Source of the DNA: Massalongia carnosa
Taxonomy: Eukaryota
Assembly (NCBI GenBank): GCA_965645245.1
Contig: OZ287069.1
Coordinates: 3,100,001 to 3,164,000, forward strand
Reading direction: 5' to 3'
DNA: 64,000 nucleotides
Of this stretch, positions 1 through 62,300 are shown piece after piece. Within the stretch, counting starts at the first letter, position 1. Every line of letters begins with the position of its first letter. Both the position numbers and the translations under genes were made by a program. The notes below the pieces were generated by a model that did not search any database, was not told the DNA's origin, and was given only the letters and a program-made list of their open reading frames with translations.

Positions 1-833
1 AAGGGAGAAAATGAAGAGATTGGAGAGACGAGACAGTCCATCGTACTGTCTGGTGGCGTTTGAATCTCGGATCGAATGAGAGACGCAGTGGAAGCGGAGG
101 TCAACGAAACACCTTGCTCAAGGCTTGGCTGTTCGTTGTCGCTGGCACGTCGATAAGTTGGAGACCGGAGCAACGGAAAACGGGACAAGTTCTCTGCCTG
201 CCTAGTCTTGAACTGAGGACGGTCTTGTTGACTTTGACCTTTAAACGGCTGACTAGTGAAAGCGTCGTAGTTGACAATCTCGGCGTCGCTGAAAGCCCTC
301 GATAGAGGCGATCTCGGCGATTGCCTCAATAGCTCCTGCAATCTCGAGCTTTTTTTCAGACTTGTATCTATCGCGAGCTTTGAGAGCGGTTCGTTTAATC
401 CACGTTGCTGTCCCGATTCCAAAGTGACGTGTGGGTGGAAAGTGATCGAGGGCCGTCGGTTGCGTATGAACTCTTCCAAAGGAGAGGGTTCATGATAATG
501 GGAATCGTGAACGAGTCCGTCCTTTAAGAAGGGCTGTAGATCGTCATGACCCGAGGCTGCCGGCACGTTAATGGGCGGCGTAGATGCATGGTTCTCCTGC
601 TCCTCGAACGCCGTCCATCTTGTTTCTGTATCAGCAGCCCTTATCGATAATGGATATTTCCGTGATAGCGAAACACGCCCAATGACATCAATCCCTTCGC
701 CGTGCAATTGCCCGAGGGTCCCATTATCTTCACTGCCGCGAGTGAGCAGCCCTTGGGGTGTAGGCGAGCTAGGGGCGGAGCCCGAGGTCGCTGTCCGCAG
801 CCTCTGGAATCGGGCCTGCAAATCATAGGCCAT
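1..833 (-). CDS. 5' part of a gene that runs off the window start; Ser/Pro-rich N-terminal region, possibly of a Pezizomycotina CAMK-like Ser/Thr kinase
   Basis: Not in the ORF track because it has no stop inside the window. The minus frame is open from ATG 833 to base 1: MAYDLQARFQRLRTATSGS...RRPSITFHPHVTLESGQQRGLNEPLSKL...RSPLSRAFSD...EIQTPPDSTMDCLVSPISSFSP. The kinase identity is only a recollection of similar N-termini; no catalytic domain is in the window. Confidence 0.65.
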   Translation of the reverse strand, partial: MAYDLQARFQRLRTATSGSAPSSPTPQGLLTRGSEDNGTLGQLHGEGIDVIGRVSLSRKYPLSIRAADTETRWTAFEEQENHASTPPINVPAASGHDDLQPFLKDGLVHDSHYHEPSPLEEFIRNRRPSITFHPHVTLESGQQRGLNEPLSKLAIDTSLKKSSRLQELLRQSPRSPLSRAFSDAEIVNYDAFTSQPFKGQSQQDRPQFKTRQAENLSRFPLLRSPTYRRASDNEQPSLEQGVSLTSASTASLIRSEIQTPPDSTMDCLVSPISSFSP

Positions 834-3041
834 CCCCCCAGGAAGCACAACCCAGAGAAATGGGGACTTGTGCAAGACGGGCTGAACTGCAGCAGCGGCG
901 GATTTGCGCTCCTCTCACACTTGGTTTGGGAAGGCGCCGATTTTGGAGGCGAGAGCATGCGTCTGCGTTGATTCGAAAAAGACGTTTGCTTGGTTTTAGA
1001 TGGCACTGATAGTGCTTTCGGACCGATTTCAGTTGCCTTGGATTGTTCGGGAATCGTGTTTGGGTTGTGATCACCGCCTCCGCCGAGTGTCTGGCAGAAA
1101 CTTTTTCTCATACACGAAAAAGCGATTGCGATAGCGTTTTTGAATGGAGCGAATAATGGTTGAATCTAGCGAACTGACAAGTACAAATACGTAAGAACGA
1201 GAAAGAAAGGAGAGGACTCGAAGGAGACGTATGGTTGAAGAGATTTCAAAAAATGAGGGGGGGGAGGATAATGGGCGAGTTAATCCATACGCCTTTGTGG
1301 TCGAATTGGGGGCGTTGTATGAATGATTATCTAAGACTTTTTCAATTGCGAAATGGAGCTACCTAAAAGTACGGCGTATTGTACCTAATGGCGAGTATGT
1401 ATGTACCGAGTACCACCAAACTAGATCGTTTTTAAGGGGGAAGGTTCCTGGGTTCCTCCGCTTCCCCACGCCCTATAAAGTCCGGGTGCGCACTAAAGCC
1501 CACACCGTGATACCTTATCCAGGTTCGCCGGATTTTACGCATATGATTCTACGCATCGCCTCTCCTCGTACGCATCCGCTGTTTTGCCGTTGACTTGCAC
1601 TGTTTCTTTCATCTTAGGTAACAGAAATCGCAATCGGGGGTCTCCGTCACTAGACATGAGTGTTTAGCTAACGTCAGAGATTGTACACTCACCGCTACGA
1701 GAAGAACGGAGGGATTGGTAATCACTAGTTACAAAAGGAATCTTACCCAGATACCGACAGTAAGAGCCTAATCACCTAACCCTATTCATAGGTACACACA
1801 CACCAACCCTAGAGTAGATACTCTCTGTACGGAGTACTTTAGTAGCCGATAATGAGCTCATACGAGCGGCTCAAAGTTCATTCTCCGAGCGGTCCCGACA
1901 ATCCCGACATCTAGCCGAATTTCGGAGGGCGAAGAGATCCCTGCAAGCCAGTTACAGTGCTGTTTAAGCATGATATTAAGCTTGTAACCTGACAGGCGAG
2001 GGCAAGGAAACACGTCTGATACTCTCCTTGACTGTAACACTCTCAGCATTACAAAACGTTGCGTTTTCACGGCAGCTGAGACGGTTCGATACACCATGAT
2101 CGAATCGCCCGTTTCCAGAATCCTCGTACCACCATTCTGATGTTGCAGGCGTAGACAGTTAGTGCTGATGTAAGCTGCTTGCATAACACATAACGTTAGG
2201 CCAAGACCACCATATGGAGTACGGAGTACAGTAGTAGGCAGGACCTCCACAACAGTTGGCGAACGCTATGATCATGTTCACACGCTACGGCTACAAAGGA
2301 ATCATAGATTGGGAGGAGCGGGCACAGCGTTGTTCTTCCTTTTGATGGTGTGAATTGGATACCGCTGCCTACAGAGTACATGGTGTATGTACATCGAAGG
2401 CTCCGGCCAAGAGCTGCAACCAAGCTCGGTCCAGAATAGACGATATAAAGCAAAGGTGGTGTTAACAAAACCTGCCAATTTGTACGAGTCGTAAAATGAC
2501 CCACAAGTTAACTTATTGGATCTAGAGTACATGAATAACAAGGATGCCACCTCTTCCCGGTAGGAATTCAGGTACCCGCACTGTATGCCGGCATGTTCGT
2601 GCTTCACATTGATAAGCAGCGATATACCATAGAGAATACAGAGTACAGAGTACTCTGTATAGGATACCTGCTCTAGATCACTCTGTACTGGCAATGGCTA
2701 TGAGAAATTTCTCCCTCCCTAACTTTAGTTATCGTACCGACGAGACCGTGCCATCTCAGAACCGAGATTTTGGAACCGGTTTCAAGTTTTTACGATCGAT
2801 ACAATTCGTAAAAGGTTGTAAATTTAAACCCACGTATGCAATACAAAATTATCTATTTAATTTCAGGATTGATATCGAAAAATTGAAAACTTTTCTTAAA
2901 TTTTCTAAAATTAATGACTTGCGAAATTAGCGGAAAATGTCACACTTGATGACCCGGACGATAAATTTTTGATAACACAATAAACTTGCTATCTATTTTG
3001 CAATTGAATACATTTTCTAAGTGACATGATACCCTATATCA

Positions 3042-5873
3042 TCATAAACTTACAGCAGGATTCGGAGGAACATGAGTTATCATGTCATGTTGCGATCGCA
3101 GAATTACTTCCGGATATACAATGTTATCCGTTTTCCAGTCATTTCGTTCCGGAAACAACATACACAATCGAGACACATCCATAACTCGAGATAATGCCAC
3201 ATATAACTGACCATGAGTAAAAGGAGGAGCTCGCAAATCGACTCCTATCGTGTCCAATGATTGACCCTGCGACTTGTTGACAGTCATAGCAAAGCACAAT
3301 CGTATCGGAAATTGTTTGCGACTTATGATCCAGGGCAACTCGCCTTCCGTGGTATTAAGAAGAATCCGGGGAATTAATCGCGTTTCACCGTTGAATTCTT
3401 ATCCCAAAATCTTTCCCTCTAGACAGGTCCGCGAAATGTGAGTAAGACGTAATCGGGTGCCGTTACAGAGACCAAGTTTGGGATACAAATTCCGCAAAAA
3501 AATGATTCGGGCTCCAAGTTTCAGTTGCAATTGTGAAGGTGGTATAGACGATGTTTGCAAGGGTTGTAAAAACTCGGGAGAAAGAAAGTTTCCTCGTTCC
3601 TGCGCCGTATCGTTCTCTATTTGATCAACGGAGTTCAAGGTGTGCGAACCGCCCTGCAATTTATTCAGTACTGCACCGTTTAACTCCGCGACGATATCGT
3701 TCCGCAAAGTCAAAATTGCTCGACTTGCGAAAGAATCCGCATCCAGATGAGCTTGATGCATGCGATCGGAAGGAAAAACGGTGTCCACGAAACTGTCTAA
3801 GTTGTTCAGTTGATTGACTTGTTCCGGTAGCTGAACACGACCGGAAAAAGCAGGATCATAAGACATTTTCCCGATCCAGTCCGCAAACGCCTCATTGGCG
3901 ACTTCGTTACGAATTCGCATGATTTGACGCAAAAACAGTTTTTGAAATCGCGGCCACAGAAGGTGTTTTGAATGTTCGCCGCAACGATGGCTTCCCGATT
4001 TCCACGGGGAACAACGGGCAAGATTTGAGCGAAATCTCCGCCTAACACCATCGGAATAACTCCGAAAGGTCGTCATTACCTAAAAGGTCCGTAAAAGTGC
4101 GATGTACGGCCATGAAGCATTGTTTGTGTTGCATCGGCACCTCATCCCCAATGATTAAGGCTGTGCGTTGCAAAAGACAGTGTAAATGCGTGTTGCGGGT
4201 GATATTACACATGCTGTCCTCATTTAAAATCAAAGGAATTTTCAACCGGGAATGTGAAGTCTGTCCGCTAGGAAGAAGTAAAGCCGCAATGCCGGGAGAC
4301 GCAACGCAAAGAATGATTTTATTCTCCGCCCGAATATCATTGCAAAGAGTCTAATATAAAAAAGTCTTACCTGTTCCTGCAGGTCCGTGAACAAAAAAAT
4401 GCGCCATTCTAGGATAATCTCTAACTCCCGCAACAATGGTATCAAAACAGTATTTTTGATCCAAATTCAATTGAGTATATCGTTCATTTCGTAACGTCGT
4501 TTCTTCGTTGAAATCGTAAGTCATTTCTGTAACGGTTCGACCATGCGTGGTGCGGACGGCAGGACCTACAGCGAACAAAGCAGGAGTCCCAGTTATAGTA
4601 GAATAGAGCTTGGTCTGCGGACTAAGTATTGTGCCTTTTGGTTGGGAGGACAGGTGGCGCAATGGTAGAAATCTATTTACTTCTCGCTTCGTCACAATTT
4701 CATTTGCGATCAACGGATTTCCAGTACTCCGACCCCAATCGTATGTAAACAGCGGCATATTCTAATCCTCTAATCGTTTTCCTAAATCCGAAAGACCTCC
4801 GTTTAACAAATAAAGGCCGTAATCTAAATGCGGACTCATTAAATCGTCAGGAACATCAGTCATTGATCGTAATCGATGCGGTAAATCGTCATATATATCA
4901 TTTGCGTATCGATTCCATAAGGCCGTAGGATCCGTAACACGACGATCATCGGTTGTGGCCGCATTCTCCCGCAAAGCCTCGCTGGCGGATTTGTAAAGCC
5001 TGATAAAGGGATTCATATTGTGCAACATCTCTGTTAAACGTCGTACAATATCGGGATCCAATTCTGTATGTTGTCGAGTACGAATCGCGGTTGCTTCGTC
5101 GAGATCGTAAAAAACAGTTGAGCAAAGCGAGGAGAATCGTCAACGGGATCCAAAGGACCTTGCAGGTGATACAGTTCTCCGTGATTTTGAAAACATACCG
5201 GTCCACGACCGTTGCGAGGAAGTCGGCGATCGAGTTTGTAGTTTACGGAGGTGAACGTCAACGTGGAATTATATTTTCGGAGGTTTTTGCGAAATGTGCG
5301 GGTTCTAATATCGTCACCAATTAACAGTTGCCGTAAATAATCAGGAGGAGGCTGAAACGGTGGCAACACGACACCACCTCGCTTGCAACAGGATTTGTAT
5401 ACTCGATCTCGTCTTCTGTCACTCTGAACAGCTTCCGTTTCCCAATGCCACGCACCGCAGTTTCTGCAATGATCTGTCATGTGTTGAATTCGTTGTATCG
5501 CGGATTCTAAAGTGTACTGACTTTTAAATGCGGCAGGAAAGTTACGATTTGCAGCCGCATGGTCACGGGCTTCAACAGTACGGTCGCGACGACGTGTTCG
5601 ACGATTTCCTCGTGACTCACGATGATTAACAGGTGGAGAAACAGGTCTGGAACTCGCAATGGATGGAGAAATATGTCCGAAACTCGACCTTACGAAACCG
5701 CGAGCTCGGTTGTGATTGTACTGACCCGCTTCTGCTTCGTTGAGCAGCATTTCTTCCCAAATGTTCGGATTTTCCAACTGCAAATCATTTCGATTTGGCG
5801 GGCTTGGCGAGTGGAAAGCCGACGATACGGGAGAAACGGAATTCGTTATTGAACTGTTAGGCGAACTCTGCAA
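3042..5873 (-). pseudogene. Helitron Rep/Pif1-helicase pseudogene (frameshifts, stops, Rep core missing)
   Basis: Collinear fragments in different frames: 5034-5873, 4946-5206, 4762-5061, 4351-4758, 4242-4445, 4042-4245, 3806-4051, 3399-4076 and 3042-3338. Confidence 0.9.
4528..4696. mobile_element. Solo LTR (169 bp) nested in the Helitron ORF
   Basis: Termini TGTAACG...CGTCACA; perfect 5-bp TSD ATTTC at 4523-4527 and 4697-4701. Removing it restores GNPLIANEMTYDF. Confidence 0.85.
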
Positions 5874-6366: not shown

Positions 6367-7242
6367 ATGGCATGTCTTGTCGTTAAAGCATCACGCTCAT
6401 CCTTGGCTTGCTTTCTTGCACCAACCACGACCACAAGCTCCAAGCTCCAAGCTTCACTCACTCTTCCGCGGCTCTATCAAATCAACCGCCACTTCAGCAC
6501 TACACCGAGCAGAATCATGGCACCTGCAAACGGGGACAATGGAGATGCTGGAGAATTGGAGGGAGAGCTTAACCAATGGAAGTTCCGCGCACCGTACAGC
6601 ATTCATGAAAGCGACAAGAATTTCAACGTCCGATACGAAGGAAGCTGCCATTGTGGCCGGGTGAAGTACCAGCTTAGCAGGGAAAAGCCGCTTGATGCGA
6701 AATTCTGCCATTGTGCTACTTGTCAGAAGATTCATGGTACGGAGCTTGGCTCATCGCTCAAAACATGGTGGCTGCTGCTAACCTATGTCTCAGGGGCTCC
6801 TTTCCAATGGGCTGCCATCTTTCACAAAGAAGATATTAACTTTACGCATGGGCATCATGATCTCGGTTGGTACGACAGCGCGGAGAAAACATGCAAACAT
6901 AAGCTACCGTGCAAGGTTAGCTGTGCATATTGTCGCACTCCTATCATGGACGAAGGGCGGAACATGATACTCCTTTTCCCAACACTGATCAATTTCAAGT
7001 CGGACGAAGATAAGAGGAACTTTTCACCATCGTATGTGGAGCACCTACCAAATCTATGACAATGATTTGAGCTTTGCTAATGTACCCTCACATGCAGGTG
7101 CCACATGTTCTACAACCGGAGAGTCGTTGACATTCCTGATGGCAAGCCAAAGTGGACGGGCCTGAACGATGAGAGTGAGTTGATTGAGGATAGCCCACCG
7201 GAGTTGAAGAAACGAAAGCGGGAAGAAAACGAAGAAAAATAA
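6367..7242 (+). CDS. GFA / CENP-V (Mss4-like) zinc-binding protein, 3 exons
   Basis: Motifs GSCHCGRV, CHCATCQK, CAYCRTP and HMFY. Introns ~6737-6793 and ~7032-7097; stop TAA ends at 7242; second in-frame ATG at 6517. Confidence 0.9.
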
Positions 7243-7541
7243 GATGTACCTGGATATGGTAATACGGTCGCTACGGTTACTTACAAAATGATACTTGGGG
7301 AGTTGTTCTAGGAGATGCTTTAGTTGGGCTGGGGTAGGTTAGCATGGGAAACAGAGTCGCTTGATTGCTGAGGATCTGATCACTTGAGCGTTCAACAAAA
7401 AAGCTACTGCTATGATTCTAGATTTGAAAAGAACAAAGAGCTGCAGCTTATCTAGATACGTACCTTTCATGGCATGTATGTACACTCGGTCTATGTTAGA
7501 CACAACTTCATATACCTAAGCTAGTATTTAAAGAATCTTAA

Positions 7542-19384: not shown

Positions 19385-20256
19385 AATCCGTCAAGCCGGT
19401 GATTACGTCGCGTCTATAGAAAAGCGTACTGCAGGAGCTATGATTTCGAAGTTGCTACCCTGGGCGTAAATGCAGTACCGAGACCTTGTTTGAACAACTT
19501 CCTGGGCTCCTCTGGCAGAAACGGGCTGGAACAAATGGGCTATCCCATCGTTCGCCACAGATGCTATCGGTCTGATAATCCACGCCCGCAGACGATTCAC
19601 GCTTCGAAAATTCCACACACAAGACCACCCACAAAGCTTCAGAGGCAAAAAGCCAGCACAAGAGCGACCCAAGCCCAACGACTCACACGCCGAGGCAGTG
19701 TAAGAACATAAGGTAGTCGAATATTGTTCAGGCAGCCAGACCTCGGAAAACTCGACAAGTGGAGCAGAAGAGGTGAAGAGCGAGGAGCGACGGAGGACTA
19801 AAGAAGAAGCCTGCCTAGGGGTCGCAGCAGAATCCACCTCGTGCGTCTAGACTTCTTTGTACAGAGTACTTCTGTAATCTCAGCTGCTCGGGGCGACGCC
19901 GCTGACTATGTCATGCGTGGCTAAAGCAGGCGCAATGCAACTCTACATATCGCAGAGCAGAGTAGAGTGATGTCTGGAGAGGTTTGTGACTGGCAGCTCT
20001 CCGTCTGGGTTCGGTCACGTCTCTGATTTGTTGGCACATGACGGATCAAGACTGATTGGACTACGGGGTATACCCGGAGATAAGATATGAATGCAACTCG
20101 CCTAAATCAATTGAATCTAGTAGCCAAGTCTAACGGGATTTAGTCAAGTCCTATCACATTAGAGTAACATACGCCGTACGGAGTGTGTATAGCGTAGAGT
20201 AGTATCACGGGACTACCATAAAAGGATTTTGTACGAAAGCGCCCGTGGCGTATAAC

Positions 20257-20538
20257 TGTCACGGTAGGAGTCCAATGATCCTATCCATATGGTGGAATAG
20301 TGTTTTGCTATTGGCTATACTACATGATAATCTGACGGAACGAACACAAGGAGGAAAACAGTAACTGCTCGCAGAGATTTCCTTTAACTCCTGAAAAGGG
20401 ACACTCACTAAGCCCAACTCGGTAAGCTCGCAGTCTAACCACAAACGATCATCCGCCGGCGCTAAACCTTAAAGTCCATCTATGGCCGTAGATGGACCTG
20501 TTCAATGAACCTCCACGTCTCATGTTCACACCATGACA
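20257..20538. mobile_element. Solo LTR-like element (282 bp)
   Basis: Termini TGTCACGG...CCATGACA; flanks ATAAC / TTAAC (4 of 5 TSD match); internal motif shared with the 21504 element. Confidence 0.65.
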
Positions 20539-20635
20539 TTAACGATTTTTTGAGCTTGCCTCATTGTCCTCATTGCTTTTTTTCAATCCGACACGTTCTG
20601 CTGCTACGAAAGCGGAAATCACTCCTGGAACGTCT

Positions 20636-22155
20636 ATGGCGAATTCCATTGTCTTAGACGATTCGCCCGAGATTCTTGAATCTCGTACGAACGAACCTAC
20701 TGAGAGCTCAGAATGTACAAACGGCTCAAGATCGGGGTAGAGTTCAGCATGCAAAAAGATCTGCCACGTATGGAGATGGAAAGGATGTGAATCTTCAACG
20801 ACTGGGAACCATTCCAAAGTCCAAAGTTTCTCTAAAACCTCATGCTGGATTGCCAGCCATGAGCGTACGGAAGACAGGATCTCAATCTCAAGTATCTTCT
20901 GGCATAGTGCATAAGATAATTGCACATTTGGTGATTCGAAAATATGATTTGTCTGATAACAGCAAGACTGTTAAATGGATCAAAGTTTGTAAGTGTTTAC
21001 ACTGTCGTTTCTTCCGTACGGAGTTGTTATATTAATATATTAGCCATGACAAACATAATTCTCATCGAGGACACGGAGTTCGAGAATCCTTCCATTTTCC
21101 TAAACAAATCAATCCTACTAGAGATGACATCGTACGATGACCTGAAATCCACTGCCATAGCAGTGTATTTAGCATGTGACTGATCAGACAAACATGGAGC
21201 CACAGATTTGGGTCGCAGTGCTAGAGATGTAACTTCGTTGATTGAATATCTGCAGTACTTTAAAAAGTCTGCAATCAATGAATACAACTGTTGGGTAACT
21301 GCGGAGAGACCGGATACCTCGTACAACTCGCATGACGCCTCGGACAAAGACACTGTGAAGACTCCTGTAAAACCCAAGATCAGAGTTCGATCTAATTCGA
21401 AATCTAAGATCAAGTTGGAAAGAAAAGACTCGGACGAATGTGTCAAGAAGAACAAAATCATCAAACAGGAAAAGATTTCTGATGCGCATGTCAAGGTATG
21501 ACTTGTCACGGTTCAACCACATCCACCCAAGGCGCATCTGCCGGCGCACTAACCGCTTCCGTTACTCACCCCTTTTAGCGGTGGATTGGACGGTCATAGG
21601 GACCGAAAGCTCCGGGACGCTAAACCTTATTTCCATCTACGGAAACCGTAGGTGGCCGGTCACTATCAAGCAATCATAGGGCAATCAACGGAGGTCTGAA
21701 AGGACTGAAAGGGACGCATCGGAACGACCTTCTAAAGCAAACACAAATGGATGAAAGGGACAAAGGGCAGAAAGACTGTTTGACCAAACTGATCACTTAT
21801 TGATGAAGACACAAGCAGCTGGATCGGGCCAAGCGATTATCTATATAGACTCCTAGAGAGGGCACACCCTTTGCTTGATTCCTTTCTGCATCTTTGATAT
21901 TTTCTAGTCCATAGCTTCCCAGTAGATAGTCAATTCCACATCCTGGTTGAACCGTCACATGACTCGTACGTGTTGTTGCATCCTCTTGTTAACAATTTAC
22001 AGGAAGAATTGGCCGATTCTTCTTTTCCTTCAGTGGAAAATCTCCGCAAAAGAACCATTACTGTCCGCTCTCCGCCAACTTCCATCTTGACAACGACATC
22101 ACCTCTTCGTACGTGGTCCAAGATGGACTTAAAATCGGAAGAACAGAGTCATTGA
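20636..22155 (+). pseudogene. Decayed intron-containing gene of unknown function (Lys/Ser-rich)
   Basis: The pieces join across GT-AG introns (~20989-21044, and 21496-22001, which contains the solo LTR). Apparent frameshift near 20690 and in-frame TGA at 21181-21183. Confidence 0.55.
21504..21959. mobile_element. Solo LTR (456 bp) inserted in an intron
   Basis: Inverted termini TGTCACGGTTCAACC...GGTTGAACCGTCACA (14 of 15 match); perfect TSD TGACT (21499-21503, 21960-21964); TATA-like TATATA near 21842. Confidence 0.9.
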
Positions 22156-22345
22156 AGCTCTGTTCGTAATAGGTTGATGAAGGAGTTGTTAGTTATGCGT
22201 TTCATTAAGTACACATGTTTTATGTTTCGTACGACTTGGGTCAGCCATCACTTTTATTTAAAGCGATCGAGTAACCCTAACTTCAAAATTTAAGCGAAAG
22301 CATTTGAAGTTCGGCGACATCGAGCCCCACATACATCATTCAACA

Positions 22346-23042
22346 ATGACCCGTACGAGCGGTAGGTTTCAAATGACATTGACATATTCTTGTAACAATA
22401 TAATGAATATTATCTTGTTTAAACCTCAACCTCAATTCTCTTTTGTGTTTTTCTTATTTCTCCATCCTTTTTCTTCTCGTCATCATGTACGTTGATTTAT
22501 TGTCAATTACCCGTACGAGCTGTATTAGACTGATTCTTGTGTTGTTTAGGACCTTAATTCTTTACAACGCCGCAGTCGCCGTTGCCGCCGTGCAGCAGAA
22601 TCCCGTCCTCATTGTAGGGCAACAGCAGCTGGCCTCCTTCGTACACAGCCCGCAGGGACGGGCGATTCTAGCCTTATCAGGTCAGAACGTGGAGTTCGTA
22701 CGCGGCAGTATAACTCCCGCTCAAATAGGATCGCATCGTCCCTCGTATCTCAATGACATTCTCATTCAATCTCGTGAAACAACGTTGAAGCAACCGTGTC
22801 TCGCGTGTCGCAACGTGTTTCCGGGCCTTCGTCCGTTTCCGAAGTGGCGCCGAGTGACCGGACACTTCGGCGGAGCATGCGCCAATTGCAAATGGCGCGA
22901 TCATGCCAGTCGCTGCTCCGTACGAGGGGATGAGGATGATGATGTCGTTGTGACTGGCCAGCGCCGTTTGAAGCCTTCTTCAGGGAATCATGTTGTGAAT
23001 GATGACGGAACGACTCGAGAAACTGCCGTTGTTCTTTATTAA
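22346..23042 (+). CDS. DUF3716-like Cys-cluster protein A
   Basis: A micro-exon (ATG ACC CGT ACG AGC G, donor GTAGGT) spliced to cag|TCGCC gives MTRTSVAVAAVQQ...RPSYLNDILIQSR...PCLACR...PFPKWRR...GGACANCKWRDHASRC. Confidence 0.7.
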
Positions 23043-23368
23043 AGTGAGTATGAAGATTTTTCTTTAAAGTTACAGCACAAGCACAAGCACAAGCACTACT
23101 TAATCGTACGGGATGTGTACGATACCTGAACAAGACTTGCACTTCTACGCAGTGTTCAGGACGAGTAACTCTTGTATGAAGAGTAAAACCAAGCAAGTCA
23201 ATTAGATTAAAATAGACATCGGGAGTGTAATATAATATGAAATTCTAATAATGAAACGTATGGGTGAATAACGCAAGCTCGTGTTGTGACAGTGAATATC
23301 ATCATGTGCAGTCTTCAAGCTCACTTCTTTTTTTCTTCTTTCTTTCTTTCATCATTGTCCTCATCACT

Positions 23369-24147
23369 ATGTCTTCCGGTATGTGATATCATTTATCTAT
23401 CTAACAGTAAGAGACTCGTACTAACTGATATATTATGTTCAGTGTCGTCTTTGCCTTCTGCCGCTGACCTTCTCATTCATTCTATGATGGTGCGGACTGC
23501 AGCTCTTGAGGTAAGTTCTTGTCTCATATTGTTATTCATGTTTCTAATTTGATTTAGTTACTTCCGTACGCCTTGCACGAAGAAATGCGTGTTGTCTTAT
23601 TGCGACGTCCCACGGGTCGCAATGTGCAATTAAGGCATGCGGAAGGGATCAAGGCACATCAGATTGAACGAGCCCGGTCTTCTTATATTCAAGCTCTAAT
23701 CATAGCATCTCGAGGGGCTCTTCGCCATCTTCCGTGCGAGCGCTGCGTACGAGGATTGGGGCCCTTCATTGGATGCTATGGTTTAGATGTCTTGAGAGAA
23801 GGCGCGTGTGCCAATTGCATTTGGGGAGATGCTTCGACTCAATGCCGATATTGTACGTAATGTCTAAAATATGTGAGAATCTTATTGCTTTATTTAATTA
23901 TGTTATAGACAGAGTATACGCGATCGTCAGAACTATTCCTCCCTTAACGCAACAGTTCTCTCATGTGGCAATTCCTCTTTCGTCGTCTGCGTCGGAGCCT
24001 CGTACAATTGAGACGATCGTCTCATTGTCTTCTGCAGAAGACAACGCTGACGTCCAATTGTCTCGAGAGTTAGCGGCAGCGCAGGTTGAAGAGTATGTTC
24101 TTAGATCGTACGAAGTCCCATCATTGAACTATACTAACTTTATATAA
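23369..24147 (+). CDS. DUF3716-like Cys-cluster protein B, 4 exons
   Basis: Three phase-consistent GT-AG introns give MSSVSSLPS...RSSYIQALIIASRG...PCERCVRGLGPFIGC...GACANCIWGDASTQC... Confidence 0.75.
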
Positions 24148-24753
24148 TAGAGAGGAAGAAATGGGAAGAGAAGAAAGCGTGGAATTATAAATATACGTTG
24201 TTGTTTCGTCGCAATGTCGCGATTCGAAACTGAAGAATTTCGTTATGGTGGTTTGGTATTTACCGTCCGCCGTAAGCATACTACGATTGTTACTGGTCGT
24301 CAAAAACCATGGGGGCATTCCCACGGAATTGGTTGATGTTAGTCGACAGAGTTGCTTACAAGTTCATTGCCAAGGTTAAATCTCATAGCGATGGTGACAG
24401 CGCATTGCGAACAGATAGATATTCTTCAAGTCCTTGGGTTCATCGTACGCTGCGTGCTCTCCGTCTTTAGCCAACATGAGGCTAAAGGAAATCTCGATGG
24501 ATGATTAACAGTACGAGGGCAAAATGAAGAACAACGACGACTAGCTACGAGAAACGTGTCGTGAGATTTTGCAATTTGTGCCTCGGTGACGTCCTGTGAA
24601 GGGTGCTTGGAGACACTACATTACGGGACTAAGAGCTTTATATAATATATTGCACGCTTGTCAAAACGAAAAACCCTGTTATGATTGTCTCGGTTATTGA
24701 AGCAAGTTTGGTTGATTGTATAAGAGTGAAACAAGATCCAAGCAAATCCCTAA

Positions 24754-25759
24754 TCAAACTTGAGCGTGGACATCTTCTGATCCAGCCGGCCGGTATCCAG
24801 AGTCATCGCGATTATAAGGTGGCCTTGATTGATTAGCCTCCATTACAATCTACACGAATCATGGGTATTCTTACCTACCTGGCGAGATTCTTCGCCGCGA
24901 CAATTCCCGCGCTACCGACAGCATACGCACCCAGCAATGTTCTCCAGCTACCACTTTGACCTACGGCGAGAGCAACTAGATCATATACAAGACATCCACC
25001 AAAGATCCAATCACTTGATGCACTGGCTAGCCCGAACCCAAGACCTGTTAACACCCTGACGGTTGTTGATGGCGTTTCTCCCTTGAAGAATGCGGCGCTA
25101 CCGTTGTGAAGCAGATCGAGAACACCGATGCCAGCGAAGGTTTTAGCAACGATGTGCGTGAGCACCGAGCTAGTGGAACTAGTGTTCATTGGCTGGATTT
25201 TGGCGACTAGGTAGTAAAGCTGGCTCAGGGTGTTGACGGTGACGAATGCATGGGAAATATCGAGACGCTCTGAATTCCAGAAGATCATCCAAGCTTCAAT
25301 GGTGTTAACTGAGTTGATATGTGATGATACAGACAAGAACGTACCGGCAATGCAAAAGTTCCCCAACGCGTAGTATGGCACGTAGTCAGCTAAAACAGAC
25401 ACGTCAGCGCTTTCCCTTGGCGAGTAGAGCCTTCCACTGACCTATCTGGTCTAACTCGGTGCGCTCAATTGGCCTCTTGGGGTCTAGCTTCCAGAGGCGA
25501 TAGAGCCAAGCAAGTTGGATGAGCTGCTGAGGGAAAAAGAAGCCTCCGATGAAATAGGGCTGAGGACTGAAGAACGAAATGTTCCTATCATTAATATCTT
25601 TCATGTTGGGCTTGGAAAGCAGTCCATATTGCTGAGCTGCAAAATCGATCAAGAAGGAGGCCGGCGCCTGGGTAACGCGAGCATGGTCAAAACGACTTTC
25701 ACCAGTTTTGGAGGAGCAAGACAGAGCATGACAGGAACTTGAAGCGACTTACCAGCCAT
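24754..25759 (-). CDS. Conserved fungal multi-pass membrane protein of unknown function
   Basis: Spliced exons IDFAAQQYG, FFFPQQLIQLAWLYRLW, YVPYYALGNFCIA, KTFAGIGVLDLLHNGS. ATG at 25759; last exon ends in TGA at 24754. Confidence 0.8.
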
Positions 25760-42640: not shown

Positions 42641-43775
42641 CTTCTCGGTGAGCGGCGGATGAGAAAGGCTTCAAATAATACACATGTGAAGGAAAGTCAC
42701 GGATAAAGCTTAGGGCTTCGCTTCGCTTAAAGGAAATATAAAAAAATGTAGGGAAAATGCAGGGAAGCTTATAGGAAACATCGTCTGATGCACCAGCAGA
42801 AATGTGAAGCGAAGTAGTTATCCACGGTTTATTTGGTGCTTTGAAAAACCCAATCACTTGAGCAATCATATACTGACGGGATTGCAAACCGAATTGCGAT
42901 CATGAGATCCATGGAATCCATATTTTCGGCTGAGGATGGATATTATGAAAGCAATTTACACGATTAATAGGAGAGACCGTTGGTGAAGCCGAGGATGGCC
43001 GGACGTCTAGTTACCTGTCATGCCTTTCATGTCTCATACTTGAGGTTAGAAAGAATGACGATGAAGCAAGGGGAAATAATGGCATCCTGAAGAGTAATGA
43101 GAGTTACCAGATGCAAACTCAGCCTATCTGTTTGACCTCGATACTCCAAGCGAAACATGGGTAATGTGTTAATGAGTAATTGGATGGATGAAAGTTGAGA
43201 GTGACCAGTCAAAATAGCTTGTTTCATCAACCTCGTCACCTTCATGGAGATAACTATCATGAGGGCAGAATAGCTTGATAGGTACGGATACATAGGTACT
43301 CGTACTCTGTCTGTACAGAGGGTAACTAGTCACCCATTGCCACATTGCCACCCAACGCTCTAACCAAGAGGAGAATAGTCAGTTGTCCTCTCCGCAATCG
43401 CTTTGTTGAGCGCGAGTCGTGGCGTTCGCGGTGTTGATACGCGAGCAAACATGGCTAAAATGTGCGTGGCTGCCTATGACAGATTATCGTATCACTTCTC
43501 GACCTCTTCTGTAAAGTTGAAACTCTTTCGTGGCTGTTGATTGATTGGGTCACACACTGGCTGTTTTTCGTTCATTACTGGCAGTGAGAGGCACGCCAGT
43601 TCTCCCTCCTCCCACGCTCTCGCCATTTCCCTTTCCCTGTCGACGGCTAGCACTGTCACGCACCATCAGCACCTCCCGTACACTTTCCTTAGCCGATGTT
43701 ATGCTAGGTAAAGCATTGCAGGACCACAGTCCGAAACCAGGGCGTAAAATCCCCCATCCCTCCTAGCAGTCTTGC

Positions 43776-46303
43776 ATGAAAGGCAATACATTGAAGCCAA
43801 GCGCAGGTGCGGTGCTAAATGCACGGTCATGGCCCACAACGACCAATCCTCTGAAACGTACTGCATCCCAGGTCAATACGATAAGCCCTTCCTTGAGCCG
43901 GCAAGGCTCAGCATCGAGCAATCGTACTTTCATAAGACAAGACTCGGTAGCGAGCGGCAATACTTTCGGAGGGTTTTCACAAGCGAGTGTTGATGGAGGG
44001 CGGCTTGGGAAGCTACATGAGGGTGTTTGGTTTGATGAGAATGACTTTGAAGATGATGCCGATATCGATCTGGATGCGGATGATCAACAATTGGCAAAGA
44101 CATCTTTTGGTGCTCAAGTATCATATCCCTCGCTCCAAGGCCCGGCCGCCTCCCAAAAATCACCTCCACAACCCCCAAATCCGGCCGGCTCTCAAATTCC
44201 TTATCCAACCTTACCTCTTCCTGCACCAATTGCACTACCTATCCAGCCGAGAGAAAGTAATGCGACACTTTCATGGTCATCTTCCCCCCCTTACCACAAG
44301 CTTTCTCCCCCACCAAAGGAGATGCCTCCGGCCAACCGAGGTAAACGAAGAACTATACCTTGGCAGAATGTAGAGGGCTCGCAGCCTAAGGTTCCCGTTG
44401 TTGCCCAAGCCGCCGTACAACAGATTTTAGACCGGAACAACGCAAATAAAGGTAAGCAAGGCTCCGATCAAGCTTTATTCTCTCCAATCTTGAAAGATAA
44501 GCCTCATTCTCCATACCCATGGAATAAGACCGCAAGTGCCCTGAAAGAGGAACAGAAAAGATTACGACAAGGAAATAAGAAGCTGGTTCGAAACAATGAG
44601 GCAGACGAAGATACAAAAAAGAATGCTTCTACCAAGAAAAAAGCAGGTATCGCTCGGGTGTATCTCAGCGATGAACAGAGAATGGTCTTGAATTTGGTCA
44701 CGGAGGAGAGGAAAAGTGTTTTCTTCACAGGCTCTGCTGGTACAGGAAAGTCGGTTCTTTTGAGAGAAATCATCAAAACCTTGCGGGTCAAACACAGGAC
44801 GCAGCCGGATCGAGTTGCGGTTACAGCGTCCACCGGATTGGCTGCCTGCAACGTCGGAGGTGTCACGCTTCACAGCTTTGCAGGGATAGGTCTAGGGAAG
44901 GAAGATATTCCAGAGCTGGTAAAGAAAATCAAGCGAAATCAAAAGGCTAAGAACCGATGGATGCGCACGAAAATCCTCATTGTTGATGAAATTTCCATGG
45001 TGGATGGCGAGCTGTTTGATAAACTGGAGGGCATCGCTCGTATCATAAGGAACAATGGCAGGCCGTTTGGTGGTATCCAACTCGTGATAACGGGTGACTT
45101 CTTTCAATTACCGCCAGTGCCGGACTATGGAAAGATCTCCAAGTTTGCATTTGATGCTGCGACCTGGAATACTTCCATTGAGCATACTATAGGCTTAACG
45201 CAAGTTTTTCGCCAAAAAGATCCAGGTAGGCTGCTTTCCTAGCATACCTAGCATCCGGCTAACAAAAAAGTCTTCGCAAACATGCTTAATGAAATGCGAC
45301 TTGGAAAGCTTTCGCCTCAATCGATCGAGACGTTCCGAAGTCTAAGTCGTCCATTGGCATTTGGAGATGATTTCGAAGCCACTGAGCTGTAGGTGACTCC
45401 TCGATTCGCATATCTAAGTTATGAACTAACGTCTGCAGATTCCCCACACGGCAAGAAGTCGACAATGCAAATAGCAATCGCATGCGGAATTTAACCGGTA
45501 AATCATGGGATTTCCGAGCAGATGATGGGGGATCGATTCAGGACCGCTCCCAACGCGACAAGCTGTTATCAAATTGCATGGCAGCACCCTTAATAACGCT
45601 TAAGCAAGGTTCCCAGGTGATGCTGATCAAAAACATCGACGAAACCTTGGTGAATGGATCGGTTGGAAAGGTGGTGGCGTTCATGGACGAGAAGACCTTT
45701 GACATCTACCATGAAGATGAGGACGAATTTCAAGCAGTAGAGACTATGGACCTGAATGATGAAGACATGACACAATCTCGCAAGAAGCTCAAAGCAGCGA
45801 TCAATGGCGACACTAGTCAGAAGTGGCCTCTTGTTCGCTTTGGCCTTTCAGATGGTAGTTCCAGAGACCTCCTATGCCAGAAAGAGTCTTGGAAAATCGA
45901 GCTGCCAAACGGCGAGGTTCAGGCATCCCGGTCGCAAGTACCATTAATCCTGGCATGGGCTCTATCTATCCACAAGGCACAAGGACAGACCCTGGAACGG
46001 GTGAAGGTGGATCTAGGGAAAATTTTCGAAAAGGGTCAGGCTTATGTGGCGCTCAGTCGTGCTACATGTCAAGAGGGATTGCAGATTACGAGATTTGATC
46101 CTAAAAAGGTCATGGCTCACGATAAAGTCCGAGCGTTTTATAACAGCTTATACAGCATTGAAGAGGCCAGAGTTTCGGCCACTTCTGGATTTGGAGGCGC
46201 ATCTAAGAAGGTTGAGACTGTAAAGAATTTCAACCCGGATTTAATGCATAGAGGTCATGCTTCCGACGATGACAATGATGCCTTACAGGAATTGTTTATG
46301 TAA
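43776..46303 (+). CDS. PIF1: ATP-dependent DNA helicase Pif1
   Basis: [67 protein letters not shown]; two introns. The start is ambiguous (see findings). Confidence 0.97.
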
Positions 46304-58648: not shown

Positions 58649-59386
58649 GGCTTGGATTCTGCTTTTGCGTTTTCGGCGTGATGCAGGCGCTTAACGAACC
58701 TTTTAATTTCATGATATAAAGGCCGTGTTGGGTCAACGAGAATTCTGTCACTAAAGTTGGTGCTTTTAGATCTCTATCTGGAGATGCTCTTTGGAAGACA
58801 CGTTTGCATGTCCTTATAAAACACGTAGTCCTACAAGCACTTATATATTTGACCACAAACGTCGCAATTTGATGATCGTGTATGGTACTCGTACGCATGT
58901 GAAGGAACCCCGGGCGAGTTGAGTTGAGGAGACAATTATACATTGATTAGATGTATCTAGCCAGTTTGATGAGAGGATGACGAGACATTGACATGTAGAC
59001 ATGCGGGGTTTGATAGCGCGGCGAAGCTCCCTAATCGTGCTATGTATAGACCCTGATTCGGTTGGGGTTTAATGTTTTGGCACAATTAGAGTCCAAATGT
59101 GTCGCTAAACAATCGACCTTCTGTTGATCAAGCTGATTGTATTTACATCCTGTGAATCTAGTCGCGCAAAAGATCGTGTTTCTGAAGTCTTTGTGTTACC
59201 GAAATGTTGTTGATGCAGGGCTCCTGTCGTACTGTCCATTGAGCGTTTGCCTTATATATTCTGCAAAGCTGCATACCAAGTCGTCTATTCATAAACCTTC
59301 CCTCTTTCACATCCATCTGTTCACCGTCGGTGAAATATCTCTATCATCATCTCCATTGCTATCTATCGTTTCTTCTTTCAGTCATA

Positions 59387-62300
59387 ATGGAGATCGTTGT
59401 ACGGAATCTGCCAGATTCGATAACAGAGAAGCAAGTTGAGACATTTTTTCGCCCTGTTCTGACTAACCTTTCTATCAACTCTTTTCATTGCCGAAAGCTC
59501 AAGAATAGAAGCTTTGCGACCATTACTATTGTCGATATCTACAAGGCTCAGAAATTCCTTCAGCTCCATGGGCAGATGGCACCAGGTCGAGAGCATTTCG
59601 AGCAAGTCAAACAGAAATTATATCATATGAAAAGGCCCATCAGCTGCAGCAAAAGCACGGGGACTCCCGATAAATTCCTCCTTCAGAGCCTGGAAAGAGA
59701 AGAAAGCGAGAAGCTAACCGTGAAAGCTCGAAAGGCTAAGCCTTCGTCGAGCCGGGTGCAAGACCTTCAGCGGAAATTTGATATTGTCAGTCTGCATTGC
59801 GGTCACTGGGACTATCTTCAGGGGCGCCTAGTCTTCATGACGCACTTTCAAGAGCAGAGGGCAGGGACCATGATATTTAGGAAACAGGCGGTGACCATCG
59901 ATCTTCATCCAATAAATGACATTCAACCAGGCCATCGAGTGGAGGTGCCCTACGCTACTATTGAGTCATTTACCATAGGGAACCGAGCAATCCCTGCTGT
60001 GACTTATTCTCTTAGCGCACCTCCCAAACTCTTGGAGCATCTTGCGTTCTCCACCGTTGAAAGTATGCTGACTGAGAACATGAGGATCCTTGGTTTCCAA
60101 AAACAGCAGCCCACGTTCAAAAGAAAGAGGATCACGGCGCTCAGGAAGGGACACGAGGTGGTAGTGTCAAGCTGCCTGTGTTATCGCGTGATGCTGCAAC
60201 AGCCTCACGATATCCCATTTCTGCAAGCTTTAAAAAGGGCTACTGAGATCCCCGAGAGTATTTCCTGGGACACAACTCATATCCTAAAGTTCGACTTTCC
60301 CGCTCAGCTAAGTCGTTTAAACACTGTGCTGGGCGGGAGCCAATATGATAACGTTGCATTTGAAGTGAAATTTCAATTTCAGAGACTAGCTCAGATGGGA
60401 TATCTTCCTCCTGCCATTATTGTGGATCTCTTCAGAACCGTCTACCGCACCCCCTCTAAAATCGATCATGCTACGATGATTGCAGCAATTCGAAAACTCT
60501 CCAACCACATCCCATTCGCAGGTCCTGAAACAGAAGCCTCTGACCTCAGCGTGAAAACCCTGTCGAACTTACTAACTCAATATCAGGAATTAGCGGCAAG
60601 AGAATTATTGTACTCCAATCTGGCCGAAAAATACGAGCACATCGCCTTGATCCACAAAGTCAGCGTAACCCCAGTGGGGCTGATGCTCTCAGGGCCGGAA
60701 CCGGAGGTCATTAACAGGGTGCTCCGAAAGTTGGTTTATACACGTAGCCTTCCTGGACAAGGCTAGATACACTGACTTTCATCCCAGGTACTCTACATTT
60801 TCGAACTACTTCATTCAAGTCTCGTTTCAGGACGAAGACGGAGAGCCAATTAGGTACAACCGCGAAGTTTCGAACCAGGAGATTTATCGTGGGCGTTTTA
60901 AGAAGGTGCTTGAAGGCGTCATCAATATTGCTGGTCGTGGTTATGAGGTACGTCAAGTGATACATATACCCCCAGCTTACCCCGAGAAGATTAACGAGAT
61001 AGTTTCTTGGATTTTCTCATTCCTCCCTACGATCTCAAACCTGTTGGTTCATGGCACCCTTCACCCTTGACGGAGAACTCCTTCATGCCAGACTAGTGAT
61101 TTCTCGTCTTGGAAAATTTGATATGATTCGGTCGCCCGCAAAATGCGCAGCACGGATTGGGCAGGCATTTTCGCAAACCTTCAGCTCAATCAACCTTCCT
61201 CCTGAAGCTATTCAAGGAATCCCGGATATCAAGAGAAATGGCCGAGTATTTAGCGATGGGGTTGGAACCTGCTCTGTGTCGGTCATGGAGATGATATGGA
61301 AAGAATACACCCAGTCTCAAAACCTGAAGCCGACCGTTTTTCAAGTTCGTTTCCGAGGTAAATAGTTACCGTTCCATGAGTTCCATGAATATCAACATAA
61401 CAGGTGACGTAGGGGCCAAGGGTATGATATCTCTAGATAGCACCCTGAAGGGTGATGTTCTTCGTTTAAGACCGTCCATGATCAAATTCGAGGGACCCGG
61501 TGAAAGCATCGAAATATGCGGTGCTGGGCTCAAACCTTTGCCAATGTATTTGAACCGTCAAATCATCAAAATCCTGGAAGATCTTGGTGTATCAGAAAAT
61601 GCCTTTCTGGATCTTCAAGCGACTGCGGTGGAGAAACTACGCGTCACAACCGAGTCCCCTATTAACGCTGCAAACTTTCTGCAGCGGAATCATATTGGAA
61701 AGGCCGCAAGACTGCCTTGGTTGATTCGAAAACTTTTGGACCTTGATATTTTTTTCAATGACGACGATTTCCTTCGCAATACTCTTGAGCTCGCTGTGCT
61801 GATTCAGCTTCGAGAGCTGAAGCATCGTAAGTCATTATTTCAGATTTGTTAATAAGGTTGGATGGAAGGAATCAGGGTTTGAACTATGCTAATATCTGTT
61901 ATGCCGCAGGCTCCCGCATACTTGTTGAACAGGGTCTGACATTATATGGTGTGACCTTACAACTCTCTCGAAGAGGAAATGTGCTGACAGAAATATTAGG
62001 AATTATGGATGAAACAGGTTTCCTACAAGAAGGCCAAGTATACTGCCCAGTCCAAGATGAAAAAGAGAGTAATGTTCTTACAGGAAGTGTCGTGGTGACA
62101 AGATCTCCCGCTTTACATCCGGGGGACATTCAGGTGGCGGACGCAGTTGAAGTACCAATAGACTCCCCATTAAGAGCTCTACACAACTGCTTAGTCTTTA
62201 GCAGTAAAGGCGAACGTGATCTCCCGTCTCAACTCAGTGGGGGTGATCTAGATGGAGATTTATATAACATAATCTACCTCGATAGTCTCTATCCACGGAA

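Follow-up and report, generated by a model that had tools for sequence, protein, structure and literature searches.

Why does one six-letter palindrome, CGTACG, recur 17 times within 4.3 kb of a genome region in which it is otherwise rare? The question is raised by a 64,000-nt stretch of DNA from Massalongia carnosa (assembly GCA_965645245.1, contig OZ287069.1, positions 3,100,001 to 3,164,000; the whole stretch is called the window), for which a preliminary description, made from the letters alone, had noted an island of CGTACG sites at window positions 20175–24449. The island carries two predicted genes of the family DUF3716 (Pfam PF12511), referred to here as genes B and C. CGTACG was found to be the core of a longer motif, TCGTACGA, and the array of such sites is very probably a selected cis-feature tied to a DUF3716 module, recurring with that module in several unrelated classes of transposon.

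The CGTACG Array in the Window

All 17 CGTACG coordinates given in the preliminary description proved to be exact matches, and the seven single-transition decay forms (TGTACG or CGTACA) were present at the positions listed for them. The other 59.7 kb of the window hold six further sites (1567, 7657, 33146, 54263, 58890 and 63303), none of which extends to the full TCGTACGA; the rarity first described for this remainder was borne out, with the count of about five corrected to six. The window total of 23 sites, 17 of them in the island, compares with 6.87 ± 2.32 in 100 dinucleotide-preserving shuffles, the largest of which reached 14. When each strand-merged 6-mer was scored for its densest 4.3-kb stretch of the window, CGTACG was the top outlier (17/23, Poisson p = 1.2e-21 against its own outside rate), followed by the overlapping word GTACGA, then by poly-A and then by unrelated words, these last at p = 6.6e-8 or weaker. 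The density was 4.0 CGTACG per kb in the island, or 4.8 per kb after subtraction of two inserted repeats, both of which lack the word as previously noted, and 0.10 per kb elsewhere in the window. TGTACG and CGTACA were five times denser in the island (7 sites, 1.6 per kb) than outside it (19 sites, 0.32 per kb). With the inserts removed, the gaps between island sites were mostly 116–224 bp, and the base preceding CGTACG, both strands merged, was T in 50% and C in 29% of the cases.

The sites had been said to fall in all three frames of the open reading frames (ORFs) as well as outside them, and this was found to hold when the phase was read site by site. CGTACG encodes Arg-Thr (RT) at 20684, 22108 and 22352, lies in the Val-Arg (VR) phase at 20864, 22697, 22919 and 23746, and takes the third phase (xCG-TAC-Gxx) at 21131, 23565 and 24107, whereas the sites at 20175, 22228 and 23105 are outside ORFs. 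The ratio of observed to expected CpG was 1.12 in the island and 0.92 outside, and island composition does not account for the excess. The earlier statement that codon usage offers no explanation also stands, as the excess persisted when composition, codon usage and protein sequence were controlled for. A degenerate tandem repeat was considered as the origin of the sites and rejected, since just short two-copy repeats were met around individual sites; it is also countered by the other copies of the element, which share sites by position and not by repeat units. The sole sign of local duplication among the island sites is a 21-nt direct repeat, 90% identical, at window positions 22344–22364 and 22504–22524, with each copy centred on CGTACG and the two lying 160 bp apart.

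Association of the Array with DUF3716 Loci

Three peptide patterns, derived from an alignment of 26 gene B homologues and independent of the DNA word, were scanned over JGI metagenome contigs, and 290 stretches were found to encode a relative, the best 80 of which are the loci analysed here (numbered with the prefix L). A locus was counted as enriched when it had at least 5 CGTACG and exceeded the dinucleotide expectation 5-fold or more. By this rule 57 loci were enriched, 14 had no site and 9 lay between, the last being mostly hAT copies altered by repeat-induced point mutation (RIP). Enriched loci typically contained 4–8 CGTACG per kb, dense examples being L027 (41 sites in 5.0 kb), L053 (51 in 6.6 kb) and L038 (46 in 6.4 kb). 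CGTACG or the overlapping GTACGA was the commonest 6-mer in most of the dense loci, and in the weaker loci L074, L032, L020, L002, L062 and L046 CGTACG was still the most over-represented palindromic hexamer around the gene. Thirteen of the 14 siteless loci were tested (L029, a 1-kb contig, was left out), and in every one of the 13 the decayed motif T[CT][GA]TA[CT][GA]A was present at 3 to 10 times the shuffle mean, exceeding all 200 shuffles. The coincidence of CGTACG peaks with DUF3716 loci elsewhere, which the preliminary description had put forward as the point to examine, is thus found both in the enriched majority and, in decayed form, in the 13 siteless loci tested.

Confinement was assessed in contigs of at least 9 kb together with the window. 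The clusters held 158 sites in 27.6 kb (5.7 per kb), as against 11 in the other 123 kb (0.09 per kb), so that CGTACG is not equally dense in unrelated DNA, and in the long contigs the boundary of the array coincides with the boundary of the element.

Form of the Motif and Selection on the Sites

Among 608 sites from 27 non-redundant loci, CGTACG was preceded by T in 69% and by C in 19%, which makes the 8-bp palindrome TCGTACGA the unit; about 48% of the 608 matched it perfectly. L024 and L015 favour CCGTACGG over TCGTACGA. An 8-bp palindrome fits a dimeric reader of double-stranded DNA. The 560 gaps between sites had a median of 135 bp and a mode of 120–160 bp, gaps shorter than 40 bp accounted for 5.7% as against 22.8% for random placement, and the coefficient of variation of the gaps was 0.75 overall and 0.29–0.31 in two hAT-type loci.

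Synonymous codons were shuffled 1000 times with the protein and the codon usage preserved. The 13 large ORFs contained 6–41 sites, in all three codon phases, against shuffle means of 0.6–6.2, and the observed count was above every shuffle in 12 of the 13, that of L015 being equal to the maximum. Sites were also kept between diverged copies more often than other 6-mers: 15/17 against 40% for L009 and L012 (86% identity), 12/17 against 10.5% for L009 and L008 (64% identity), 21/46 against 7.4% for L038 and L053 (62% identity) and 17/51 against 8.7% for L053 and L035 (62.5% identity). The peptide FVR is spelled TTC-GTA-CGx in 21 of the 25 loci that have it, and the codons for SVR contain CGTACG in 19 of 19. 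In the window, gene B has sites in both of these conserved codon runs (FVR at 22697, SVR at 22919), and the gene C exon has sites at 23565 and 23746. As judged from the sequences, it is selection on the DNA itself that maintains the array.

Carrier Transposons and Their Decay

The carriers of the array are given in Table 1. In the hAT family, 8-bp target duplications were perfect in L017, L018 and L059, that is, in three of the four copies with both flanks. The flanks of L009 (5589–5596 and 8935–8942), unlike those of these three relatives, show no matching 8-bp duplication, which suggests a chimeric assembly or a rearrangement. CGTACG occurs at positions 500–3185 of the 3338 bp of L009, whereas the word CAATATT characterizes the hAT termini, with 13 of its 14 occurrences within ~100 bp of the ends; the array is therefore not the subterminal repeat of the transposase. 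In the Crypton-like unit L037 5426–9242 and its relatives, the recombinase gene, an NDC10_II match, and the DUF3716 gene run towards each other. A second Crypton-like unit with NDC10_II and GCR1_C ORFs (L037 2404–5425) adjoins the first, and may use the DUF3716 protein in trans or be truncated.

The copia, gypsy, integrase and helicase assignments come from a set of 27 ORFs in which a family was found for 17, two of them ordinary host genes. In the copia and gypsy loci the DUF3716 gene is convergent with pol, the antisense arrangement being seen in L053, L038, L027, L024 and L035. L035 closes on itself through an identical overlap of 127 nt (1–127 and 7140–7266), which gives a unit of 7139 bp, and one unit therefore holds both pol and the antisense DUF3716 gene; such closure is the usual picture of a long terminal repeat (LTR) element assembled from many copies. 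The other retroelement contigs are too short to show ends.

When compared with L009, the low-GC hAT copies L017, L018, L059 and L070 displayed mainly C-to-T and G-to-A changes, with hit rates of 33–65% at CpA, 26–45% at CpG and 3–6% at CpC and CpT. This is the pattern of RIP, and the hosts therefore run RIP. In these decayed copies TCGTACGA has turned into forms such as TTATATAA. Fossil arrays free of CpG were found in L058, L061, L071, L075, L076, L079, L080 and others, the commonest decayed forms being TCATACAA, TTGTATGA and TTGTACAA. Live arrays are visible only in copies that escaped RIP.

The DUF3716 Proteins

Genes B and C matched DUF3716 with 46.4 and 49.5 bits, respectively, the gathering cut-off being 22. 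The family alignment of gene B starts near 22551, and its true start is uncertain; gene C, which probably spans about 23370–24147 with introns, is divergent, with 35% identity to gene B over 81 residues, and no relatives of it were found among longer proteins. For gene B, 80 homologues were obtained at E ≤ 1e-3, the best 90% identical and many of them metagenomic, the named ones coming from Onygenales, Dothideomycetes, lichen fungi, Botrytis (including Botrytis hyacinthi) and Xylariales. This subfamily is similar over its full length, including the N-terminal 100 residues, and its nearly invariant columns include the Cys/His cluster. The profile retrieved 133 clusters (50% identity) at E ≤ 1e-30, a number that rose to 407 at E ≤ 1e-10 and to 1102 at E ≤ 1e-3. 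In 75 sequences the DUF3716 core was found to be basic (median pI 10.0, net charge +9) and the tail disordered and acidic (median net charge −5). An AlphaFold model of gene B, built with 80 sequences, reached a predicted local distance difference test score (pLDDT) of 81.4, with ~90 over residues 11–120, and a predicted template modelling score (pTM) of 0.71. The idea of an SBP domain, the plant zinc domain that binds a GTAC core, was not supported, no PDB match to the model being found by Foldseek or VIA-align. A protein atlas search with the DUF3716 clusters excluded gave a best score of 0.80, below the level of a lead.

Two gene calls join the family to other domains: P0123 (469 aa) joins a DDE_1 transposase domain to DUF3716, and P0177 (520 aa) joins NDC10_II and GCR1_C to the N-terminal portion of a family member. 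Each may be a genuine fusion or the result of two adjacent genes being called as one, and a carrier of pogo type is hinted at by P0123. One DUF3716 protein, from Fusarium graminearum, is stated to be orthologous to Neurospora NCU05718 (PMC10776026), and recombinant NCU05718 is reported to bind double-stranded TTAGGG repeats directly (PMC4650311).

A Two-Hairpin Element Downstream of DUF3716

The third component of the module is a 66-nt element past the gene B stop codon (Table 1), which, when folded as RNA, gave −22.6 kcal/mol (z = −3.6). A covariance model was made from 5 sequences, including window positions 23098–23163, and 64 sources were searched with 17 near-duplicate loci excluded. Matches were found in 49 of the 64 sources, and in 44 of the 59 non-training sources at E ≤ 0.01; 49 of 50 matches followed the protein match on the sense strand of DUF3716, and the carriers included hAT, gypsy, copia, helicase and integrase units and, weakly, the Crypton-like ones. 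In the fitted alignment 95.5% of the cells pair, as against 74.5% when shuffled and 29–42% with the partners slid, and compensatory change was observed in 17 of the 18 pairs. The common G-U pairs point to an RNA on the sense strand. No Rfam match was found in window positions 19900–24700 at E ≤ 1. Splice-like signals, with GTRWGT adjoining the stop codon and YAG immediately ahead of hairpin 1, suggest that a short intron in the 3' untranslated region may precede the element.

Proposed Mechanism and Alternatives

The best explanation overall, and on balance a probable one, is a portable module whose DUF3716 protein docks on the array. The module has three parts, namely a gene for a DUF3716 zinc protein, the 66-nt structured element and an array of TCGTACGA every ~135–150 bp across the element, and transposons with unrelated enzymes carry both module and array: copia and gypsy elements, hAT units, Crypton-like units with a tyrosine recombinase, a unit with an rva_4 integrase and a helicase-bearing unit. 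The island is one member of a multi-copy family in a lichen-associated ascomycete and has no transposase of its own. The DUF3716 protein encoded by the element would bind the palindromes as dimers and cover the chromosomal copy, and the coating would keep that copy transcribed, or shield it from host silencing or RIP, as VANC does for VANDAL. DUF3716 is the natural candidate for the reader because it is the sole gene common to the carriers, and we are inclined to regard it as such. The palindrome, the even spacing with short gaps avoided and the coverage of the whole unit fit a dimeric double-stranded-DNA protein that covers the chromosomal copy. As to the effect of docking, activation or anti-silencing is suggested more tentatively. 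The array, its spacing, its conservation, its restriction to the elements and its co-occurrence with DUF3716 were observed directly; the role of DUF3716 as reader and the effect of docking are inferred. In Pseudocercospora fijiensis, a 19-bp element of the Pfcyp51 promoter that contains TCGTACGA is reported in one copy in the wild type, and six copies of it were reported to raise Pfcyp51 expression at least three-fold in a promoter swap (PMC6637983). The fullest version of the proposal is a self-marking cassette made up of the DUF3716 gene, a structured 3' RNA and an array near nucleosome spacing that runs across coding sequence of any kind. The cassette would have moved between five or more unrelated superfamilies of transposons in filamentous ascomycetes, and its protein would coat its own element in trans, thereby maintaining activity or giving protection against silencing or RIP; this version is possible but doubtful.

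Several observations weigh against docking by DUF3716. The loci were picked by the presence of DUF3716, and the association is one observed from DUF3716 to the array. The array-dense Crypton-like unit at L037 2404–5425 has no DUF3716 match of its own, although this fits a trans-acting protein equally well. The site conservation at low identity (12/17, 21/46 and 17/51 in the comparisons above) may be inflated by the anchoring of MAFFT on shared 8-mers. Foldseek and VIA-align returned no PDB match to the gene B model, and no DNA-binding fold was recognised in it. The protein clade does not track the T or C flank of the motif, so that no sign of co-evolution was obtained, in a tree of 25 proteins with good support for only 5 of its 22 inner branches; co-variation of clade and flank was rejected because the C-type loci L024 and L015 do not group. 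The single native promoter copy in P. fijiensis, moreover, fits a host factor as reader equally well. In the main rival, a conserved host protein, such as a transcription activator of host promoters, reads the array, transposons have gathered its sites in order to be transcribed, and DUF3716 is a separate passenger or cofactor. The rival is favoured by the native Pfcyp51 element, extra copies of which raise expression through a factor given as unknown (PMC6637983), by the unit without a DUF3716 match and by the lack of co-variation between protein and flanking base, but it is considered unlikely, since the site of an activator is needed at a promoter and not every 135 bp through coding DNA with short gaps avoided, the array goes with the DUF3716 gene across at least five unrelated enzymes, and the six off-island CGTACG of the window are never the full TCGTACGA.

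The opposite effect, in which the array is a mark of self-recognition or copy control that works against expression and is used by the DUF3716 protein or by the host to silence, methylate or hide the element, or to guide new insertions into existing copies, would agree with the two CpGs in each site, with the loss of nearly all sites in RIP-decayed copies and with the array-bearing units that lie side by side in L037. Such a mark is nevertheless improbable, being hard to square with intact open-ORF copies that keep their sites under purifying selection and with the one published functional test of the motif, which shows activation (PMC6637983); nor is a single targeting cofactor likely to serve enzymes as dissimilar as hAT transposases, tyrosine recombinases and integrases of retroviral type. 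Still less probable is an action of the motif in RNA, in which CGUACG would be read in transcripts and would serve, for instance, their export, their stability or their escape from RNA silencing: a structured RNA-like element, one stem of which includes the motif, does sit 3' of the DUF3716 ORF, and a palindrome places the motif on sense and antisense transcripts alike, but an RNA word needs no 8-bp palindrome, sites are also found between convergent genes and outside ORFs, and the even 135–150 bp spacing suggests chromatin or double-stranded DNA. A functionless compositional or mutational signature, left by a HIP1-like donor genome or by biased repair, is largely refuted and scarcely tenable; the G+C content of the island is indeed below that of its left neighbour and the relatives are patchy among fungi, but the word is rare off the elements in every long contig, site positions are conserved across 36–46% sequence divergence, the same word is met in many metagenome contigs and unrelated element classes, and synonymous shuffles fail to reproduce the site counts.

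Comparison with Known Systems

HIP1 (GCGATCGC) of cyanobacteria is an 8-bp palindrome with a CG-rich core that is hugely over-represented and written through genes, genome-wide. The analogy with HIP1 drawn in the preliminary description holds for the iterated palindrome but not for a genome-wide signature, the present array being element-wide: it halts at the element ends, beyond which the remaining 59.7 kb of the window contain six sites and the 123 kb outside the clusters contain 11 (0.09 per kb). Subterminal transposase-binding repeats, such as the hexamers of Ac/Ds and the 12-mers of En/Spm, are likewise short iterated words read by an element-encoded protein; each set is confined to a single family and to the outermost few hundred bp of the element, whereas CGTACG is internal in hAT, where the termini have CAATATT, and is common to retrotransposons as well.

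There is a likeness in kind to the VANC anti-silencing proteins of the Arabidopsis VANDAL (Mutator-like) transposons, for which target motifs, binding and loss of methylation have been demonstrated (Hosaka et al. 2017, PMC5735166). In both systems an accessory protein that is not a transposase is encoded by the element, and a short word has accumulated in the same multi-kb element; the DUF3716 gene and the array lie within bounded hAT and Crypton-like units, as in VANC-type accumulation. The VANC motifs, as described there, are YAGTATTAY and AGTTGTCC or AGTTGTAC, which are non-palindromic and located in the non-coding tandem repeats of one superfamily, whereas the present motif is an 8-bp palindrome produced by point changes through coding and non-coding DNA, evenly spaced and found, together with the same protein, in at least five unrelated element types. 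VANC binding and demethylation are experimental, while the DUF3716 side is inferred from sequence, and the likeness carries no claim of homology.

Two fungal systems share the gene arrangement. The antisense extra gene brtn lies between pol and the 3' LTR in the Boty-like Ty3/gypsy elements known from Botrytis and Sclerotinia (Zhao et al. 2011, as cited in PMC8365987 and PMC7264820); the DUF3716 genes of the copia and gypsy loci are also convergent with pol, and gene B has a homologue in Botrytis hyacinthi. The comparison is by description only, in which the function of brtn is given as unknown and a motif array is not mentioned, and the island of the window differs in having no pol. REP9 of Zymoseptoria tritici, a class II transposon of the IS3EU type, carries an integrase-like gene in addition to two DUF3716 genes (PMC8232023). 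It resembles the window in having two DUF3716 genes per multi-copy element, and L030 in pairing DUF3716 with an rva_4/rve integrase; the description of REP9, on which the comparison is based, reports no iterated palindrome, and the island has no integrase. The Pfcyp51 repeat, TAAATCTCGTACGATAGCA, contains the same perfect 8-bp palindrome, and more copies give more transcription, but its one to six copies are reported to stand in tandem within a host promoter and do not form a kb-scale array, and a link to DUF3716 or transposons is a matter on which the authors do no more than raise a question (PMC6637983).

In the literature searched, supplements being outside its scope, no paper was found that links DUF3716 to CGTACG or TCGTACGA. 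Antisense extra genes in fungal LTR elements, a DUF3716-bearing IS3EU-type transposon and plant VANC are already published; what is new is the link between DUF3716 and the array, quantified across element classes, the evidence of selection on the sites and the structured element 3' of the ORF. If the proposal is correct, sequence-specific docking on TCGTACGA would be the first testable function for DUF3716, a domain with more than 1000 sequence clusters, and unrelated fungal transposons would share one accessory system, for which the sole known parallel is plant VANC, in a single superfamily. DUF3716 becomes a candidate reader for the Pfcyp51 promoter element, and the protein–motif pair would explain why transcription is boosted when a host promoter contains extra copies of a TCGTACGA element. 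Because the motif is short, exact and easily scored, arrays could be used to flag live and fossil elements in any fungal genome. The two-hairpin element represents a new conserved RNA structure without an Rfam family.

The Island as a Repeated Element

Five public sequencing runs, one of them labelled as a lichen metagenome and none listed as RNA, contain from a third to over half of the sampled words of the island. Contigs of four runs were mapped onto window positions 19400–25000, and their summed depth, which is not a copy number, was uniform over the flanks (850 in run X1, 26 in X2 and 125 in X3), about 2–19 times the flanks over the island without its inserts and 100–480 times over the inserts. 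The island is thus multi-copy in a lichen-associated host genome, and its derivation from an element, as first proposed, is upheld by this and by its relatives, which are bounded transposons. Contigs entering from the flanks end at 20283–20286, within insert 1, and those leaving to the right flank start at 24202–24233. No terminal inverted repeat (TIR) or target-site duplication (TSD) was found at the island ends, which were placed to ~100 bp from depth, the only inverted repeat with a duplication in the island being that of the inserted solo LTR.

Insert 1, the first of the two solo LTRs in the preliminary description, has the ends TGTCA...TGACA and an imperfect 5-bp duplication (ATAAC/TTAAC), and insert 2 (LTR 2) is flanked by the target duplication TGACT. 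At about four times the flank depth, contigs without LTR 2 link 21491 directly to 21959, from which it follows that LTR 2 entered a single copy of the element, being absent from others, and arrived after the array; the earlier view that the array predates the solo LTRs is supported by this joint. A deletion form, in which contigs link 22411 to 22983, has lost most of gene B, and public-run contigs that bridge 20636–21504 likewise represent deletion derivatives in the same or related genomes.

Table 1. Positions of the predicted and observed features in the window and in the carrier loci.
Feature	Location	Strand	Evidence or content
CGTACG array, core of TCGTACGA	window 20175–24449	none	17 exact sites and 7 single-transition decay forms
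Part repeated in host genome (approximate)	window 20537–24280	none	summed contig depth
Insert 1, high-copy, 280 bp	window 20257–20536	none	sequence; depth ~100 times flank
Insert 2, solo LTR, 456 bp	window 21504–21959	none	16-nt inverted ends, TSD; depth 140–480 times flank
Gene A, predicted	window 20636–22155	+	ORF run interrupted by stops, frame changes and LTR 2; no Pfam family
Gene B, DUF3716, predicted	window 22485–23042	+	Pfam match on ORF 22407–23042
Gene C, main exon of second DUF3716 gene, predicted	window 23558–23860	+	Pfam match
Two-hairpin element, 66 nt	window 23098–23163	+	56 nt past gene B stop codon
Hairpin 1	window 23103–23123	+	stem includes CGTACG at 23105
Hairpin 2	window 23125–23160	+	
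Two-hairpin element, other examples	L009 6510–6575; L024 576–641; L027 1084–1150; L023 2148–2215		
hAT carrier, 3.34 kb	L009 family		TIR CAGCGTGGTTTTCAATA; BED and hAT-dimerisation transposase
Crypton-like carrier	L037 5426–9242; relatives L040, L025, L078		94–96% alike inside, flanks unrelated from contig to contig, no inverted ends
Ty1/copia carriers	L053, L038, L035, L064, L066		RVT_2 matches
Ty3/gypsy carriers	L027; L024		L027: RVT_1, RNase H, integrase, chromodomain; L024: similar set without chromodomain
rva_4/rve integrase carrier	L030		
Helicase-bearing unit, class unknown	L023; L015		L023: DEAD-helicase and OrsD protein; L015: OrsD

The Pfam search of island ORFs gave no transposase, recombinase or reverse transcriptase, tblastn against the window gave no match to the Crypton-like recombinase, and neither an LTR pair nor pol was found in the window, which thus lacks the brtn-like arrangement. 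Gene A has one ORF with three matches only, all of them close kin, and no relatives were found among the 80 loci; it is therefore taken to be an orphan or a decayed gene. The neighbours of the island are ordinary genes, with a PQ-loop protein to the left and an unnamed ORF to the right. ORF pieces of a PIF1-type helicase, possibly Helitron-like remains, occur at window positions 3402–4079 (−), 43767–45239 (+) and 45425–46300 (+) and show no CGTACG enrichment. A gene for a fungal RNA-dependent RNA polymerase (RdRP), with RRM, PH_fung_RdRP and RdRP domains, lies at window positions 59243–62556 (+), and the host therefore has at least part of the RNA-silencing pathway.

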